A DNA stretch of 41,599 nt, from contig CAXXIN010000010.1 in NCBI GenBank assembly GCA_963665275.2, positions 1-41,599 on the forward strand, read 5' to 3'. This document shows, in pieces, positions 3,164-41,599 of the stretch. The notes under the pieces are model-generated. The model was given only the letters and a program-made list of their open reading frames with translations, did not search any database and was not told where the DNA came from. Position numbers and translations under genes: made by a program. How positions within the stretch are numbered: position 1 is the first letter of the stretch; each line of letters opens with the position of its first letter. Source of the DNA: Negativicutes bacterium. Lineage in GTDB: Bacteria; Bacillota; Negativicutes; UBA1444.

Positions 3164-4904
3164 CTAACTCCGCCCAGCGGCAATCCTGTTCCTGCCATTT
3201 TGTTTCGCCTGATATAGGGCCCTGTCGGCATAGTGCAGTAATTCCTCGGCATCCATTTCTTCGGACACTGGCGAATTTCCAATCGATGCGATCCCCAGAC
3301 TGATGGTAACGGGAATACGGGTCTTTCCTTGCATGAACGAGGCGTTCTCAACTATCATCCGAAACCGCTCGGAAAACTGAATGGCCTCTTCGAGAGACGT
3401 TTCCGGCAATATGGCTGCAAACTCTTCTCCTCCGTAGCGCACAGGCACATCCAGATTACGGAAGTTCGCCCGCATCAGGGATCCCAGTTCCCGCAACACC
3501 ATATCACCCACAGGATGTCCCCATGCATCATTGATCTTTTTAAAATGGTCGATATCTATCATCACCAGGCTTAGTGGACGAGCGTAGCGTCGACTGCGGT
3601 TGATCTCCCTTTCTATGAGGTAATTGAACATCCGGCGGTTGGAGAGTCCTGTCAATTCATCCGTTAGGCCGATTTTTTCCACACCGCGAAAACAAATGAT
3701 GGCGTTCCAGGCCTAGTGCGGTCTGGGCTGCCACGATACGAAGCATATCCTCCATATGCCGGTAATTATTGATCCTGCGGTCATAATCCCACAGCAGCAC
3801 AATGATTCCCTGCAACAGATCGCGGGAAAACAGCGGTAGGATATAGATCGACTTGCCGCCGGAAAAGCTGACTGAAAAGGCCTTTTTCCTCTCCGTCATG
3901 TCCGGGCCGTTGTTCTCAAAGCATTCGTCGATTACGCCGACCGGCCAGCGCTCAGCAAAAATTCCTTTAAGATTATCCATGTCGGTACGGGAAAAATTGC
4001 GGACCAACACTTCCGTTGTTTTGTTCAGCTGGGGTAGCCTTTGAACGAAAAAGGACGCAACGGCCTGCGCGCAAAAACAATTGCTCAGAGTGTCAGCAAC
4101 CTTTGACAGCAATTGCGCCGGCGGTATGGGCGAGGATACGAACCCCATGATCTCATAGAGCAAATCTCTTTCATCCGAAGTCTGCCGCAACAATTCCTTT
4201 TTGCGGGAACTTTGAACAGCTACGGCCGCCAGGCGGGCATACTGAGTCAAAGCCGCTACGTCTTCCAGTGAAAAAGCGTCCGCGCGATGTGAAAAAAGTT
4301 CCAACGCCCCGACCGTCATTCCGTCTGCAACGATAGGCACTCCGCACAGGGGACAGCATGTCGGCGCGGGACAACACCGGCGGCGCCTTGTGCATCGACA
4401 ATTCGCCGATGGTCACGGCCTCCCCTTCCAGATAAGCCTGGCCCTGGAATTTTTGCTCCAGCGCAGCGTCCGGCAAACGAAAAGAGCCAGCTGAGGCGAT
4501 GACCCACCAGCGGGCAGGAGCCCCTTCCATCAAAGTACAAAAAACATTGTCACTCGGATATAACCGTCCGATTCCTTGCACCAGCTGGTCCAAAACTACG
4601 GACAACAACTCATCAGCCGCTACCCGCTCCAGCATCTCCGCCTCCAGCTTTGCCCGGGAAGGCGCGTTGACTTCCTCCGGTTGTTTCGATGCAGGCGGCA
4701 ACGAAACCTGCACATCAACCACGCCAATATTCCAATTGAGCAGGCGATCGACCAGTTCTCGGGTAATCAGCATTCCCTCCTGGAGAATCACCTTGCCCTG
4801 GTCGATCATCACCTGACCCTTTTCGTTGAGAATCGTTTTCCCTAAAAACCATTCCGGGTTCCAGATCCTGAACTCTGTAACGTTTCAGCCCCTTTAAGCG
4901 GCAT
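3164..4904 (-). CDS. GAF-sensor diguanylate cyclase (split by frameshifts)
   Basis: C-terminal DELTGLSNRR...DIDHFK...RNLD (I-site)...RYGGEEF. Upstream frames encode GAF-like segments and an N-terminal DLEPGMV module. AGAGG RBS precedes ATG 4904. Confidence 0.8.
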
Positions 4905-29249: not shown

Positions 29250-29783
29250 TCAGTCGTATTTGGTCAGATTATACTTTTCAATGATGCGAAGCACGCCGTC
29301 GGCATAGGCCCACGGATTGTCCGTCGCATAACGCGGGGCAATGGAGTGGATGAAATTGTAGACATTGGAGGTATCTTTATATCGATAGGCAGGATTGCGG
29401 TTGATGTTGGACGCGTAGTCTTCAAAACAGTCCTGAATGGATTCATACGCCTGAAACTTGCCTACAGTCATGTAACGGCCCGCGCCGTAGCCTTCCGGCG
29501 TCACCTTTTCAAAATACCGGCCATTATTGCGCCATTTTTTACCCAGGACATTATTATACTCGCGAACTGAACGTCCATAGATATCCTGTGCGTCAAGATG
29601 CCTGCCGAAGCCCGTTTCCCGGCAGCTTTGGGCAATCGCAACAGACGGGAACAGCCCATATTCCTTGACTCTCTGCGCATAGGGCGCGATGCTTTCGATA
29701 TATTGCTCCGGGCTCATTGCCTGACAGAGCTGAACGTTGAAAAACATTCCCAGCAGGAGAACTCCTGTCAGGATCCATTTCAC
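29250..29783 (-). CDS. Secreted GH73 glucosaminidase-domain peptidoglycan hydrolase
   Basis: Signal peptide, AIAQSCRETGFG (catalytic Glu), NNVLGKK and YATD. Confidence 0.85.
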   Translation of the reverse strand: MKWILTGVLLLGMFFNVQLCQAMSPEQYIESIAPYAQRVKEYGLFPSVAIAQSCRETGFGRHLDAQDIYGRSVREYNNVLGKKWRNNGRYFEKVTPEGYGAGRYMTVGKFQAYESIQDCFEDYASNINRNPAYRYKDTSNVYNFIHSIAPRYATDNPWAYADGVLRIIEKYNLTKYD

Positions 29784-29837
29784 GATTCCGACCCCCAATT
29801 TGTTTTTATTCCTGATTAGTCTATCGTAAGTTTTGAT

Positions 29838-36112: not shown

Positions 36113-36454
36113 CTATGGCAATTCGGCTCTCTTGACCAGTTTCACTACCAGCTTCATTGCTGGATTTTCCTTAACATATCCCCCGACATAAAATTCATTC
36201 GGTGCTATAGGTCCGCTAAAAACTACTGTGTATTGCTCCAACGTCCCGAAAATAGATGACGGTGGCCCAAAATAATGATTTACTCTTGCTTCAGCGCTTA
36301 TGTTACCGTTAGAAATTGAATAGTTTCCTATGTAAAAATATAAACTATCGCCACCAAAAATACGCAATGTTTCAAAAACAACAACGCCGGCACCAACTTG
36401 GGTTTCTGGTTGTTCAACCGAAGCAAACGAGATCGACCATAAGCCTTCAATCAT
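36113..36454 (-). CDS. GrlR-like beta-barrel protein (prophage moron)
   Basis: MIEGLWSISF...GAGVVVF...IFGGDS.YFYIGNY matches the GrlR-family pattern. AGGAGG RBS. Confidence 0.65.
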   Translation of the reverse strand: MIEGLWSISFASVEQPETQVGAGVVVFETLRIFGGDSLYFYIGNYSISNGNISAEARVNHYFGPPSSIFGTLEQYTVVFSGPIAPNEFYVGGYVKENPAMKLVVKLVKRAELP

Positions 36455-36525: not shown

Positions 36526-36559
36526 AAAAAAAGCCTGCCGCACCGAAGCACGACAGGCT
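36526..36559 (-). terminator. Terminator ending the phage lysis transcript
   Basis: Minus strand AGCCTGTCG...CGGCAGGCT followed by a U-tract. Confidence 0.7.
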
Positions 36560-36574: not shown

Positions 36575-37201
36575 TTAATTTAAAATCTTCGGATAAAAGC
36601 TTCCCATGCCGTATACCCTATTCCTAGTAGTATACCCAGCGTCAGCACCCCAGTCCTTGTTTGTGTAACTGATCCCCGCCCCAACTTCAAAGGGCAAATC
36701 TCCTCCGGCCAGAGCCAATGTGTTAAATCCCAATTTAGCTTTGTCCAGCGTTATCCGGTAGACATCGACCTTCTGCTCCTTGATGTTCGGAGTCACTACC
36801 GTTTTATCAGCTGGTACAGCGTTTGCCGGTGATTTCCCTGCGTCGATATCCCGTTTCACCGTGACGGCTGCCTGCTCAATTGTTGGCGCCTGAACGATGT
36901 ACCGAATATCCGGGGGCTTGTCCTGCACCTTGGCCAGTTCCGTGGCCAGCAGTTTTGCCTGTCCCTGGGTGATGTTGAGCTGTTTTGCTAGCTCCTCTTT
37001 GGATTTGATCTGCTCCTGCGTCATCACCACAGCATGATCGTGCTGGAAATAATAATACGCGGCAGTGCCGACCGCCACCATGGCGACGATCAAGACAGCT
37101 GCAAGCACAATTTTAACCCACAGCGGTATCGAGTCCTGCGCATATTTCAGCTCCTGGGATTCGTATTCAGCGAGTTTCGCTTTGAGTTCTTCGTCGGTCA
37201 T
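36575..37201 (-). CDS. Phage lysis-region membrane protein (TM, coiled coil, beta-rich C-terminus); spanin candidate
   Basis: Single TM (WVKIVLAAVLIVAMVAVGTAAYYYF), helical Q/K/E-rich segment and aromatic/Gly beta strands. Last gene on the lysis strand. Confidence 0.7.
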   Translation of the reverse strand: MTDEELKAKLAEYESQELKYAQDSIPLWVKIVLAAVLIVAMVAVGTAAYYYFQHDHAVVMTQEQIKSKEELAKQLNITQGQAKLLATELAKVQDKPPDIRYIVQAPTIEQAAVTVKRDIDAGKSPANAVPADKTVVTPNIKEQKVDVYRITLDKAKLGFNTLALAGGDLPFEVGAGISYTNKDWGADAGYTTRNRVYGMGSFYPKILN

Positions 37202-37296
37202 TGAGAATCACCTTCTTAATTATCTTAATTTTGTGGCAGGAAAACATGGGGTTTTGTGGAAATAGTTTATGCGCTCGGAAAACAAGGAGTGAATAA

Positions 37297-37479
37297 ATGA
37301 CTACTCAGGAAATCGCAAGGGATATTGTGATCGCAATGATCGAAAAAGGCGCTTTCACGTTTTACTGTGCAAATAGCGAAAAGGATGTCGAAACTCCCTC
37401 GCTTAACGCCAAATCCGTAGCAGCGGCTTACGATGTGATATACGCAGGGATTCTTGTTTCCCTTAACAAAACACGCTAA
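37297..37479 (+). CDS. Small hypothetical phage protein (60 aa)
   Basis: AAGGAG RBS and a possible sigma-H promoter at 37236-37263. Confidence 0.6.
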   Translation: MTTQEIARDIVIAMIEKGAFTFYCANSEKDVETPSLNAKSVAAAYDVIYAGILVSLNKTR

Positions 37480-37631
37480 TTCCTAACTGACAAGCAATTA
37501 AGGTTCCGGGCGCAATCAATCAGTTTCGGCAGTTCGTCCTAACCGAAGATCTTCAGGACGTGCTTAATCCCCTCGCTTGAGTTCGGCCATTTCTTTTTTT
37601 AGAGCCTAAATTCGTTCTCCCAATCCCATGA

Positions 37632-37841
37632 TTAATGCGTCTTATCATATTTTTGCAGATCATACCTTTTGATAATCGCCATCACCGACGCCGCGTAATT
37701 CGGATCTGATGCATACGGGATCGCTATGCTCCGAATAAATGCCTGCGCCGATCTAAAATCCCTGTGATACCATGGCTTAGATAATTTGTCACAGTAATCA
37801 ACGAGCGCGGCATCTAATGATGTGTAGACCTGAAACTGATA
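37632..37841 (-). pseudogene. C-terminal remnant of a GH73 endolysin
   Basis: Manual translation YQFQVYTSLDAALVDYCD...FIRSIAIPYASDPNYAASVMAIIKRYDLQKYDKTH*. No start codon, and TAG/TGA lie immediately upstream in frame. Confidence 0.85.
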
Positions 37842-38135
37842 CTACTTCCATCAAGACGAGACTGGACAACGATCGAAGCCCCCCCTCAACCTAAATCCCC
37901 CTGTATCATTTGTGGAGAACATAGGATCATAAAACGCTGTCGTATTATCCCTAGCGAAATCGGTGGATCTAACCATGAAAACAATGCAATTTATCTATGC
38001 CCGACGCATCGATATTTATGGGAACATCATACATTGAATAAAAGCGAACTCGACAGAATAGCTGGTAAAATCAACGACAAAGCCGCAGATAGTATAGAAT
38101 ACTTTCAAAAATTCTATATGGGGGGCCTTCCATGA
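37839..38135 (+). pseudogene. C-terminal remnant of an HNH-like protein
   Basis: ...PCIICGE...RCRIIPSEIGGSNHENNAIYLCPTHRYLWE... has no start codon. Its TGA overlaps the ATG of the next gene (ATGA). Confidence 0.75.
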
Positions 38136-38578
38136 AATACATTGCCGGCGACTTTCCTGAAATCACCAAGATATCCTGCGATCAGCTTGTTTGGGGCTGG
38201 GGAAACGATAAATGCGCAAAGTTCACTGAGCATCTGATCTCGGCAGAAATATTGACCGAAGAAAGCAAGTCCAGCATTATGGGAAAAGCTGGCTGGGGAG
38301 CTATTGGCGCTATTGCTTTGGGTCCGCTCGGCTTACTTGCCGGCGTACTTGGTGGCGGCCGAAGCAAAGAAATTTGCGTCGCCTGTGAATTTGATGATGG
38401 CCGCAAGTTTATCGCCACGGCATCACCTTCTGAACATCGTGATTTGATGAAGTTCGCGTTTAATAACCAAAAGTTAAAGCGTTCTGTCATAACGCCTACA
38501 GCGAGTTTTTGTATACAATGCGGCACGCTTCGTCCTTCAGCATCAAAGTTCTGTTCTCAATGCGGAAACCGCTTTTAA
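38132..38578 (+). CDS. Phage protein with Gly-zipper segment and C-terminal zinc ribbon
   Basis: GWGAIGAIALGPLGLLAGVLGG and CIQC...CSQC. Confidence 0.75.
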   Translation: MKYIAGDFPEITKISCDQLVWGWGNDKCAKFTEHLISAEILTEESKSSIMGKAGWGAIGAIALGPLGLLAGVLGGGRSKEICVACEFDDGRKFIATASPSEHRDLMKFAFNNQKLKRSVITPTASFCIQCGTLRPSASKFCSQCGNRF

Positions 38579-38600
38579 GTTTTATTAAGGAGGCCTATCC

Positions 38601-38837
38601 ATGATAAAACGGATATCATTCACGCTTATTCTGGCAATGTTGATCACTGTTCCATGTTTTGCGGCCACTCCTGCAACGAGTTCAGACGACTCTTACTGCC
38701 GGAAGGTACAACTCCAAGCTCCCGAGGATGCACTGCAAAGAGGCTGCTGCTCTCACCATAATGGTGTATGCGGCTGTCAGAATGGTCGGCAAGTATGTTG
38801 CGATGGCAGCTATAGTCCTTCGTGTAGATGTGATTAG
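38601..38837 (+). CDS. Small secreted Cys-rich protein (GCCSHHxGVCGC type)
   Basis: AAGGAGG RBS, signal peptide and RGCCSHHNGVCGC...CCDGSYSPSCRC. Confidence 0.75.
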   Translation: MIKRISFTLILAMLITVPCFAATPATSSDDSYCRKVQLQAPEDALQRGCCSHHNGVCGCQNGRQVCCDGSYSPSCRCD

Positions 38838-38876
38838 ACTGTACGACAGAAAGAAGGCCTTCCAACGAAAACCCTA

Positions 38877-38966
38877 ATGATTATATTGGGTATAGCTTTG
38901 CCGGCGTTCATTGCCGGGGAGATACTGGCTGACCTGATGGTCTGGTTTTTATATTTATGGGAATAA
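38877..38966 (+). CDS. Possible 29-aa hydrophobic peptide
   Basis: MIILGIALPAFIAGEILADLMVWFLYLWE. Weak RBS, and in frame with the upstream ORF past its TAG. Confidence 0.3.
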   Translation: MIILGIALPAFIAGEILADLMVWFLYLWE

Positions 38967-39000
38967 AAAACCGCATAGAGGCGGCTGAAAGGAAGTATCA

Positions 39001-39315
39001 ATGAACGCTATTGATAGTCTAATACGGCAGGCAATTGCAGGAAGACACCCCATAGAATTCGCTTATGATAACAAAAAGCGCGTTGCTAATCCTTATATTT
39101 ATGGTAAAAGCAAACTTAAAAACCTAACGATAAGTGCCTATCAAACTGGTGGAGAAAGCTCTAAGAAACTTCCTGGTTGGCGCCCGTTTCTCTTAGACAA
39201 AATGCTAAATCTTAAGGTTCTTAATGATCGGACATTCGTCCCCACTGACCCAAGCTATAATCCCGATGATAAGTTCTTTTTAGAAGTCATTGCAAAAGTT
39301 AAACAGCTACCTTGA
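39001..39315 (+). CDS. Stand-alone WYL-domain protein
   Basis: AI...IEFAY...RVANPY...AYQ...GWRPFLLDKM. AAAGGA RBS. No HTH or WCX domain. Confidence 0.75.
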   Translation: MNAIDSLIRQAIAGRHPIEFAYDNKKRVANPYIYGKSKLKNLTISAYQTGGESSKKLPGWRPFLLDKMLNLKVLNDRTFVPTDPSYNPDDKFFLEVIAKVKQLP

Positions 39316-39334
39316 CATTGATCGTCGGCAAAAT

Positions 39335-39356
39335 AAAAAAGCCGCCCGAAGGCGGC
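39335..39356 (-). terminator. Terminator of the 314-aa gene
   Basis: GCCGCC-CGAA-GGCGGC preceded by A6. Confidence 0.75.
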
Positions 39357-39365
39357 AGGAGTTCA

Positions 39366-40310
39366 TCAGTTATCTTCTGGAGTTATGAGCGGGATCTGGT
39401 CCGGCTTTTTATGATGCTCAATTACTTCAAGGATTTCATAGTCAGTTTTTATTCCTTTTTCCGTAAGTTCCTGCGTTGTTTTAAGACGCACTTCGAGGGT
39501 ATCGCCTTTGCCAAACAGGTGCTCGCGATTTTCTATTTCTGACAAAAATTCTTGGTCACGGATAGATGCAAATATCTTTGTTTCCCCATCATCTAACCGC
39601 CACTTCAATTGATCTTCAAATGATACGCCAATGATCTTAAATACGGCATTGCGCTCTGACTCCCACTTCTTAGGAGCGGCCTCTTGGACTGCAGTTGGGG
39701 CCCGGAAAAACTCTTTTTCATCTTTAGTGACAATTGTCACATCTTTTACATGATCATCTACCGAGCGAACTTTAAATGCATCGATTCCGGGTTGATCAAG
39801 AGGCCGGAGGGTTTCTTCAAGTTTTTTGCGGACTGTTGCGCTACGGTATAGCTTTATAACATTGGGCTGCACTTCGATGGTTTCTATTCCAGCAGCGTCC
39901 TGAATTTCTAATCTGGTATTTCCGTTATCAATAATAAGCGCGTTTGTGATTTTACGCCCTCTTATTTTTTTAATCAAAGGTATAAGACCCATTCCAGCCA
40001 CACCGCAAATATCAGCTACCAGGCCAAGATGTTCTCCCAGTTTTGTTACGTCAAAGAGTGATCCGCTAAATAGCCGGATCTGATCAGATAGGCTACCAAT
40101 AAGTTCAAGACCAACATCGAATGATCCTTTTTGAAAATCAGAGCGGACCTTAACCTTTACCTTAAGATCATCGCCATTAATTACGCGATTGCCTTCTTCA
40201 ATCATTTCTCCGAATGACAATAGCGCCGGAGCTAATTGTTTAATATCCATCATGCCAATTTCAACATCCGGTCCGCCATAGGCAATTCTGATACTTAGCT
40301 TTGTATTCAA
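39366..40310 (-). CDS. Uncharacterised 314-aa prophage accessory protein
   Basis: Intact ORF with GGAGGG RBS and its own terminator. N-terminal YGGP...MDIKQLAPALL...GSF and C-terminal OB-like WRLDDG...FGKGD. Confidence 0.8.
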   Translation of the reverse strand: MNTKLSIRIAYGGPDVEIGMMDIKQLAPALLSFGEMIEEGNRVINGDDLKVKVKVRSDFQKGSFDVGLELIGSLSDQIRLFSGSLFDVTKLGEHLGLVADICGVAGMGLIPLIKKIRGRKITNALIIDNGNTRLEIQDAAGIETIEVQPNVIKLYRSATVRKKLEETLRPLDQPGIDAFKVRSVDDHVKDVTIVTKDEKEFFRAPTAVQEAAPKKWESERNAVFKIIGVSFEDQLKWRLDDGETKIFASIRDQEFLSEIENREHLFGKGDTLEVRLKTTQELTEKGIKTDYEILEVIEHHKKPDQIPLITPEDN

Positions 40311-40425: not shown

Positions 40426-41599
40426 GTGGCTGGACGTCGCGCCAATAACGAAGGGTCAATATTTCAGCGCAAGTCTGACTTGCGCTGGGTCGTGTAGATC
40501 ACCATTAACGGCGAACCCAAACCATTCTATCGGAAAACACAAGATGAAGCCGTTGAACTGCTCAAGGAGTTCCACCGGCAGCAGATCATTGGAATGAATA
40601 TATCTGCTAGTGATGAACCTTTTGAATCGTACGCTGGGCGCTGGATGCATTCGACGGTTAAAGGAACGATCCATCAAAACACATGGGAAGATTATGCCGC
40701 GCTCCTCAAAAATCATATCCTGCCTGTATTGGGGCAAAAATCAATCGGCAGCATTCAGACCGCCGATGTGCAGGGTCTATATGATTCGATGAACACCGCC
40801 GGAAAAAGCAGCGAGATTATCCGCAAGACGAATGTCGTTGTAGGTATGTTGTTTCGGTCTATGCTTCCCGATCGCCTCGTCGATCTCGGTCCAAAGCAAG
40901 GCACCAAGCGGCCTCGTCTCGTTAAAGCAAAAAACGCCTATTCACCGACGATCAGGAGAAAGCATTCTTCGAAATCGTTTCAAAGTCAAAAAGCCAATTC
41001 GTTGATGTATTGAAAGTCTATTTCGAGCTGGGCGGCAGAATTTCAGAAGTTCTTGGTCTGAAATGGTCTGCGGTGTTTTCCGATCATGTTATGGTTGAAA
41101 ATGCTTTAATATCAGTAATTGGTGGAATGCGTGATTCAGACACCAAAACAGCGAGCAGCCGGCGGAAGGTGTATCTTGCCACTGAATGTATGGCTGTAAT
41201 AAACAAGCAGCCTAGGCGAGAATTGCTCGATGACAAAGGCAACCCTAAAACAGACAACAACGGAATTACGCTCATGAGCGATTATGTATTTTGCACGAAA
41301 AACAGAAAACCACATTCTGACAGGAACTGGCGGCGGCAGTGGGACCAGTGGCTGGTTCGAGCGCTTGGTGCAGTTCCTTTCACCGAAGAGGAAGAAAAGG
41401 ATCCTCCCAGGTACCGAAAGCCTCTGATCAAAATAACCCCGCACTCGCTGCGCCATTCTCAAGCCGTACACCTGTTTCAGGCGGGATGGACCGTGGCCGA
41501 CGTGCAGATTCGAGGCGGGTGGAGCAGCCCACGAGTCCTGCAAGAAATTTATGCCAGTCACTCCGCAGAGGATAGGCAACGAGCCATGGCCCAATCAGT
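40426..41599 (+). pseudogene. int: Phage tyrosine integrase (in-frame TAG at 40495, homopolymer frameshift near 40930, 3' end just off the window)
   Basis: AGGAGG RBS and arm-binding RRANNEGSIFQRK..W. Catalytic motifs GGRISE, TKT, HSLRH, GGWS and IYASH are all present. Confidence 0.88.

Follow-up and report, generated by a model that had tools for sequence, protein, structure and literature searches.

The closest described counterparts of the protein considered here are the two-component spanin of phage lambda, composed of the i-spanin Rz and the lipoprotein o-spanin Rz1, and the unimolecular spanin gp11 of phage T1, which carries an N-terminal lipoprotein anchor in the outer membrane (OM) and a C-terminal transmembrane (TM) helix in the inner membrane (IM). 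In the Negativicutes, the Rz family PF03245 was found in only one of 401 genomes, on a 1.4-kb contig. Poppleton et al. 2017 (PMC5491611), citing Antunes 2016, state that lolA-E genes are present in none of the Negativicute genomes; they also detected no acylated OM proteins in Veillonella parvula, albeit by mass spectrometry not designed for that purpose. The same source and PMC10628300 describe these bacteria as tethering their OM via OmpM rather than Lpp. Given the reported lack of Lol, a phage of such a host cannot rely on a Lol-delivered o-spanin, and since OM lipoproteins are also reported to be missing, the classical Rz/Rz1 mechanism should fail in these hosts. Judged by titles and the beginnings of abstracts, the literature searched contained no paper on the lysis of diderm Firmicutes and no description of how phages of these hosts (Veillonella, Selenomonas, Sporomusa) pass the OM.

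The protein in question, hereafter X, is encoded by a gene in a 41.6-kb stretch of DNA (the window), which is a whole contig of a Negativicutes genome assembly of 3.97 Mb in 20 contigs (92.6% complete). Its ORF is intact and codes for 208 amino acids, and the existence of 86 homologues of similar length and of 164 cluster representatives with E ≤ 1e-3 rules out a chance ORF. The N-terminal 26 residues are acidic and are followed by the only strongly hydrophobic segment (residues 27-45/50, Kyte-Doolittle 2.61), which is spanned by a helix predicted by AlphaFold2 (AF2) at residues 27-53, so that the N-terminal TM anchor named in a preliminary description of this DNA was confirmed. No C-terminal TM helix is present in X, whose C-terminus is a β-strand. 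The translation contains no cysteine, and X therefore has no lipobox. The protein ends in ...GSFYPKILN, hence the aromatic residue is not terminal in the window copy; its nearest kin end in ...FYPKILN or ...FYPKFLN. An intrinsic terminator follows directly after the stop codon, and the scan that detected it revealed no sigma-70-like promoter upstream of the gene (cf. Table 1).

Table 1. Gene X, its parts, and neighboring features of the window discussed in the text
Feature	Position	Strand	Evidence
Gene of X, phrog_10797 member, candidate post-endolysin lysis protein	36575..37201	-	ORF; E 2.1e-29; 86 homologues; no Pfam family
N-terminal membrane helix, signal anchor (residues 27-50)	37052..37123	-	hydropathy 2.61; AF2 helix
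Conserved, predicted periplasmic α/β core (residues 54-150)	36752..37042	-	family alignments; AF2 pLDDT 85-93
Four amphipathic C-terminal β-strands (residues 155-204), then 4-5 residue tail PKILN	36590..36739	-	AF2 strands; family C-termini
Intrinsic terminator hairpin	36532..36559	-	12-bp stem and T run
Next minus-strand ORF, 113 aa, beyond the terminator	36113..36454	-	weak phrog_2483 match (PHROG); comparison with contig L008
Signal-peptide glucosaminidase, the only peptidoglycan hydrolase of the window, not co-transcribed with X	29250..29795	-	PF01832, E 8.8e-20
Tyrosine integrase over two overlapping ORFs, reaching the contig end	40594..41597	+	PF14659, PF00589, phrog_1

X matched the phrog_10797 profile, annotated as "function unknown", over residues 28-155 (E 2.1e-29, profile positions 14-146 of 194), while its relatives matched it over the full length with E values of about 1e-71; all 36 proteins from the loci described below were recognized by this profile, the best E value being 5.3e-73. 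The C-terminal domain of X belongs to a diverged, Sporomusaceae-type variant. Other resources were nearly silent: X had no Pfam family, no match in PADLOC, and none at E ≤ 10 in a profile search of the PDB, the ESM Atlas returned unnamed viral clusters only, and none of 50,697 GenBank phage records was matched by any of three family members in tblastn. A word-indexed search identified the 86 proteins of similar length (the window's own counted), and an exhaustive profile search gave 164 cluster representatives at E ≤ 1e-3, of which 97 remained at ≤ 1e-10 and 16 at ≤ 1e-30. A partial remnant of a family gene (L002) was also seen.

The architecture of the family was uniform in its N-terminal half and variable beyond it. 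A single N-terminal TM segment was present in all 36 locus-derived members, and in most of them its N-terminal flank is net positive and its C-terminal flank about neutral, which implies an N-in, C-out orientation. The N-terminal flank of the window copy is net negative (+1/-4), thus its topology rests on homology. The most conserved stretch of the family, ...(D/E)(K/R)T(V/I)VTPN..QKVDVY(R/K)I.L.K, lies in the central core, and past it the β domain falls into several types that are barely alignable, each with four strands. In a subfamily of four loci (L024-L026 and L047), a cysteine occurs just past the TM segment in a lipobox-like setting (...GGLIYGC..., ...GMIHGC...), where sister proteins have Ala-His; this residue might serve for lipid anchoring in the IM in some members. 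At the other end of the chain, the last residue was W, F, or Y in 34 of the 36 locus proteins and in 86 of 102 representatives of 160-260 residues sharing ≤ 50% identity (W 51, F 32, Y 3). In the closer set of 86 proteins, 62 end in an aromatic residue and 20 more in N (...YFN or ...FYPK(I/F)LN, the latter being the subtype of the window). Substrates of the BAM machinery are characterized by an aromatic residue that is conserved at the very end of the chain, behind an amphipathic strand, and the C-termini of the family resemble such an OM protein signal; the ShlB-type OM protein of the window's host ends in ...MTLLF.

With the family profile, matches were obtained in 66 of the 401 Negativicutes genomes (including that of the window); these represent 28 of 110 genera, and a single genome contained as many as four separate places. 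When the phylum was sampled evenly, one of the 12 genomes listed under the same class matched, and the other 388 genomes yielded a single marginal match (E 8.5e-4) restricted to the TM region; none of 112 genomes from another class of the phylum was matched. A motif scan of 185,579 species genomes with two narrow patterns found only one Sporomusaceae MAG; over 3,603 nt, this MAG is 100% identical to a genome of the window's genus (G441), and NCBI assigns the Sporomusaceae to the Negativicutes. The family is thus essentially confined to Negativicutes. As the relatives are not independent of each other and the host range of phages is phylogenetically limited, this distribution shows confinement to the class but does not prove a link to the OM. 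That the host is a diderm Firmicute, as had been proposed, was substantiated by its genome, which codes for a TolC-type outer membrane efflux protein and a ShlB-type Omp85 protein, both detected with models that were diderm-only in control genomes. The 92.6%-complete assembly yielded no match for LpxC, LpxB, a true BamA, or LolA. All three congeneric genomes contain LpxC (E about 1e-98) and, a few kb from it, a BamA-like Omp85 (E about 1e-45), so the OM gene cluster of the window's genome probably fell into an assembly gap.

To examine the genomic surroundings of the relatives, we compared 36 distinct loci, namely L001 and L003-L010, taken from public collections, and L023-L049, taken from the genomes of the class, after dropping L021 and L022 (100% identical duplicates of L001 and L003) and the partial remnant L002. 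In 24 of them, the gene located immediately upstream on the same strand encodes a peptidoglycan hydrolase, belonging to Amidase_3 (10 loci), Amidase_2 (5), Glucosaminidase (4, that of L005 recognized from the translation only), VgrG3-like_C (4), or GH25 (1), and in seven of these 24 the hydrolase is itself preceded by Phage_holin_4_1. The hydrolase and X genes overlap or are separated by ≤ 20 nt at 15 of 23 junctions (L005 excluded; gaps counted from the start of the longest ORF). L008 and L010 are truncated where their contigs end, and no hydrolase was recognized upstream in the remaining 10 (L007, L009, L026, L032, L033, L038, L039, L040, L042, and L048), a number that a PHROG scan of the neighbors did not lower. 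That one constant gene is joined to five unrelated types of endolysin is the mosaic pattern typical of lysis-cassette components. These gene orders indicate that X in intact prophages comes next after the holin and endolysin genes, frequently in translational coupling to the latter, and that phrog_10797 is very probably a class-restricted family of lysis-cassette proteins. Whereas the homologues are thus essentially confined to the class, a lysis-cassette setting was seen for 24 of the 36 loci but not for the 10 without a recognized hydrolase or for the window copy.

The idea that the family is universal in lysis cassettes of Negativicutes was rejected, because most of the listed Phage_holin_4_1 places lack it. 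This holin occurs in 156 of the 401 genomes, and a family member was found within 3 kb of it at 22 of the 150 places listed (out of 278); conversely, a listed holin lay within 3 kb of 22 of the 96 family places compared. Inspection of sixteen holin loci without the family revealed cassettes with other genes, or none, after the endolysin, as in L052 and L063, where the endolysin is followed by unrelated small genes. Since such loci show other arrangements, the family appears to be one solution among several or an accessory one. Some of them deserve a separate mention. Loci L064 (2550-2837, +) and L065 (2236-2517, -) encode, directly after the amidase of a holin-amidase cassette, a conserved protein of 93-95 residues with a C-terminal hydrophobic segment (tail-anchored), which is another candidate for a third lysis gene. 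Locus L062 (G534:C1) encodes two signal-peptide proteins of 150 and 98 residues (123-575 and 3936-4232, both on the minus strand) with OM protein-like ends, ...GYKFKF and ...FYQIKF, which may be a separate OM component of an alternative lysis system. Finally, the strongest holin_4_1 matches of the class (L054-L057, in genomes G667, G640, G724, and G610) are situated between a gene of about 400 codons and one or two genes for large serine recombinases; there, no endolysin follows the holin, and the layout is that of a different, recurrent element.

The window copy departs from this arrangement. Positions 1 to about 35,700 encode a usual chromosomal repertoire (GGDEF, EAL, and PAS proteins, RACo, a TPR protein, dehydrogenases, transporters, and tRNA-Asn), and the notion of a phage genome was rejected on these grounds. 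Beyond about 35,700 and up to the end of the contig, the G+C content drops from about 0.53 to 0.42-0.47, and this island holds X, the 113-aa ORF, several small ORFs, a candidate defence gene, and the split tyrosine integrase, which marks it as mobile-element DNA. The preliminary description had taken X for the last gene of a lysis-strand transcript downstream of an endolysin, and this was not borne out: neither holin nor endolysin lies upstream of X, where only small plus-strand ORFs occupy positions 37202-39365, and another minus-strand ORF follows it. Nor can the glucosaminidase be the endolysin of the cassette, as it lies 6.8 kb downstream of X with four chromosomal genes in between, three of them on the other strand. 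The order on metagenome contig L008 is X, a 153-aa ORF, a 114-aa ORF, and a glucosaminidase; BLAST showed that the 114-aa ORF (L008:977-1321) is 89% identical to the 113-aa ORF of the window and the glucosaminidase (L008:1687-2226) 75% identical to that of the window, which occurs in a local G+C dip, with the intervening 6 kb missing from L008. This comparison suggests an insertion or rearrangement of about 6 kb in the window (SBF, RACo, TPR, GGDEF-EAL), or a deletion in L008. The window copy is an orphan in a decayed prophage or island and, having no holin or endolysin and possessing its own terminator, is probably a relic.

Further features of the island are worth recording. The two halves of the integrase (40594-41013, SAM-like N-terminal part; 41010-41597, catalytic part) are in different frames with a 4-nt overlap, and the gene is probably frameshifted or decayed. 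The 314-aa protein encoded at 39366-40310 (-) matched PDC-S42, a candidate defence family of PADLOC (E 1e-79), as well as phrog_3243, and a small WYL-like ORF (39001-39315, weak match) adjoins its gene. The product of a 78-aa ORF (38601-38837, +), which has a signal peptide and whose C-terminus is rich in cysteine (8 Cys), matched no family.

AF2 was run with the family alignment on the whole protein (mean pLDDT 81) and on residues 54-208 alone (pLDDT 84, pTM 0.63). Residues 54-150 were modeled with confidence as helices and a hairpin: three short helices and one more pack with the hairpin (strands 133-139 and 144-150) into a compact domain, in place of the coiled-coil-like stalk that had been suggested. 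The last four strands were placed at residues 156-164, 172-180, 184-191, and 196-202 (pLDDT 73-84), bringing the total to six, and they coincide with the segments KLGFNTLALAG, FEVGAGISYTN, DWGADAGYTT, and RVYGMGSFYP, which the preliminary description had picked out as amphipathic strands. Comparison of the full model with the PDB in Foldseek gave no match at E ≤ 0.001, and in the wide VIA search it matched only through its long N-terminal helix (Z ≤ 5.5). For the periplasmic model, the best Z value in this search was 5.2; all hits concerned the last four strands and none of them stood out. The matches of these strands (Z 4-5) comprised anchors of trimeric autotransporters, PagL, OprF, and designed barrels, along with gasdermin-type pores, among unrelated sheets. 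In BFVD, two uncharacterised metagenomic phage proteins (Siphoviridae and Myoviridae) were found, which are probably members of the family. The monomer model contains only four (or six) strands, and a trimer prediction with three copies of residues 54-208, performed without controls, gave run scores of 0.32, 0.02, and 0.10, all below the mark of 0.42, a result that weighs neither for nor against a barrel. We consider it doubtful that the C-terminal four-strand module is assembled by the host BAM into an oligomeric β-barrel anchor in the OM.

Taken together, the family members would have a short cytoplasmic N-terminus, then a single IM helix oriented N-in, a conserved α/β core in the periplasm, and a variable β domain of four strands. 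We propose that X is anchored in the IM and that its C-terminal β domain may reach the OM; once the endolysin has removed the peptidoglycan, X would destabilize the OM or fuse it with the IM. The β domain might insert through BAM as an oligomeric barrel, which is the least supported step. We regard as evenly balanced the proposition that X is a lipoprotein-independent, single-chain, spanin-like OM disruptor acting in the last step of lysis of a Lol-less diderm host. A narrower version, in which X would represent a third topological class of spanin, with an N-terminal IM helix and a C-terminal BAM-assembled oligomeric barrel, evolved because Lol is missing, seems to us rather unlikely. The compact shape of the predicted periplasmic domain, as opposed to an extended stalk, counts against the spanin-like reading, and the class restriction could also reflect the host range of the phages rather than the type of envelope.

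The comparison with known systems brings out both sides of the proposed spanin-like role. X resembles Rz/Rz1 in (i) following the endolysin in the lysis cassettes of its relatives, (ii) having, like Rz, an N-terminal IM helix with the bulk of the protein in the periplasm, provided that the net-positive N-terminal flanks of the family members indeed reflect an N-in orientation, and (iii) the weak similarity of its family to Rz-like proteins. When the 36 members were compared with the PHROGs at E ≤ 0.1, 15 of the 17 families that ranked next after phrog_10797 in the number of members matched were annotated as "Rz-like spanin"; each of these matched 2-6 of the 36 members through the TM and helix region, with best E values between 6.7e-5 and 0.067. 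The matches of the window protein itself were weak (E 0.011 and 0.021, residues 33-94). These similarities could reflect only a shared composition, that is, a TM segment plus an Ala/Gln/Glu-rich helix; they are weak and possibly compositional, yet all point one way. Unlike Rz, X matches no PF03245 profile, has no predicted long coiled coil, and bears its own C-terminal β domain in place of a partner-binding end. It also differs from the Rz/Rz1 pair in having no lipoprotein partner, since a same-strand lipobox ORF in another frame, either within the gene or in the 300 nt downstream, was found in none of the 36 loci; the earlier observation that both a lipobox and a nested o-spanin are absent was therefore upheld. 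With T1 gp11, X shares a one-chain design that could bridge the two membranes, a β-rich periplasmic part, and a position in the lysis cassette, but its polarity is opposite, with the TM helix at the N-terminus and no lipobox. The anchors of trimeric autotransporters (YadA, Hia, and AtaA) likewise comprise four amphipathic strands at the C-terminus, closed by an aromatic residue, and the fold matches to AtaA (9vnj, Z 4.6, rmsd 2.6, 50 residues aligned) and Hia (2gr8, Z 4.1) fall in the range of chance meanders, with unrelated soluble sheets scoring the same. X has no Pfam match to an anchor family, and it keeps an IM anchor, whereas the autotransporters have a cleaved signal peptide and a passenger. 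On the whole, the preliminary description is partly confirmed in what it observed, the gene and its anatomy being right and the context wrong, and its interpretation is partly supported.

Other readings of the same data have to be weighed against this one. X might disrupt the OM without spanning or fusing the two membranes, either by binding peptidoglycan or the OmpM tether through its core or by inserting hairpins as a pore or destabilizer without a BAM barrel. Conservation peaks in the central core and not in the β domain, as this reading would have it, it gives a meaning to OmpM as the tether of the Negativicutes OM, and gasdermin-type pores are among the weak fold matches of the last four strands. 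We nevertheless hold it to be improbable, because no peptidoglycan-binding or SLH-like domain was detected and the terminal aromatic residue is not explained by this reading alone.

T4 RI and P2 LysA are examples of phage proteins that regulate lysis, and a comparable role, that of an antiholin or a membrane-anchored periplasmic modulator of the holin or endolysin with no action on the OM, would suit a lysis-cassette member that is coupled to the endolysin, consists of a single TM segment and a periplasmic domain, and is missing from some cassettes, as expected of an accessory regulator. The partner hydrolases, however, belong to five unrelated families, which argues against specific binding of the endolysin. 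In addition, holins and endolysins of these families are widespread among monoderm Firmicutes, yet the X family was not found in 388 and 112 genomes outside the class, apart from one marginal TM match. Moreover, the conserved terminal aromatic residue on a variable β domain would be left unexplained, and a regulatory function thus has a low probability in our view.

Lambda bor is an example of a moron located at the end of a late operon. That X is such a moron or a lysogenic-conversion protein of the envelope (superinfection exclusion or surface modification), merely parked at the operon end, would fit its position at the prophage end beside an integrase or serine recombinase, which follows or adjoins X in L004, L006, L009, L010, and L045, the survival of the window copy alone with its own terminator in a remnant, and the existence of the partial remnant L002, but it is improbable, given that gaps of 3-4 nt or 4-nt overlaps at the endolysin junctions of many loci leave no room for a separate promoter, that none was detected upstream of the window copy, that PADLOC gave no match, and that several matches at separate places in one genome fit a core phage gene, one per prophage.

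The spanin-like reading of X bears on the family more than on the window, for which the biological weight is lower as its copy is an orphan. A class-restricted family joined to five kinds of endolysin is a concrete candidate for the missing lysis step of phages that infect diderm Firmicutes. If its proposed role is true, the range of known spanin architectures would grow, annotators would gain a marker for the lysis cassettes of Negativicutes prophages, and X would provide a small model substrate with which to study how BAM inserts a precursor tethered to the IM.
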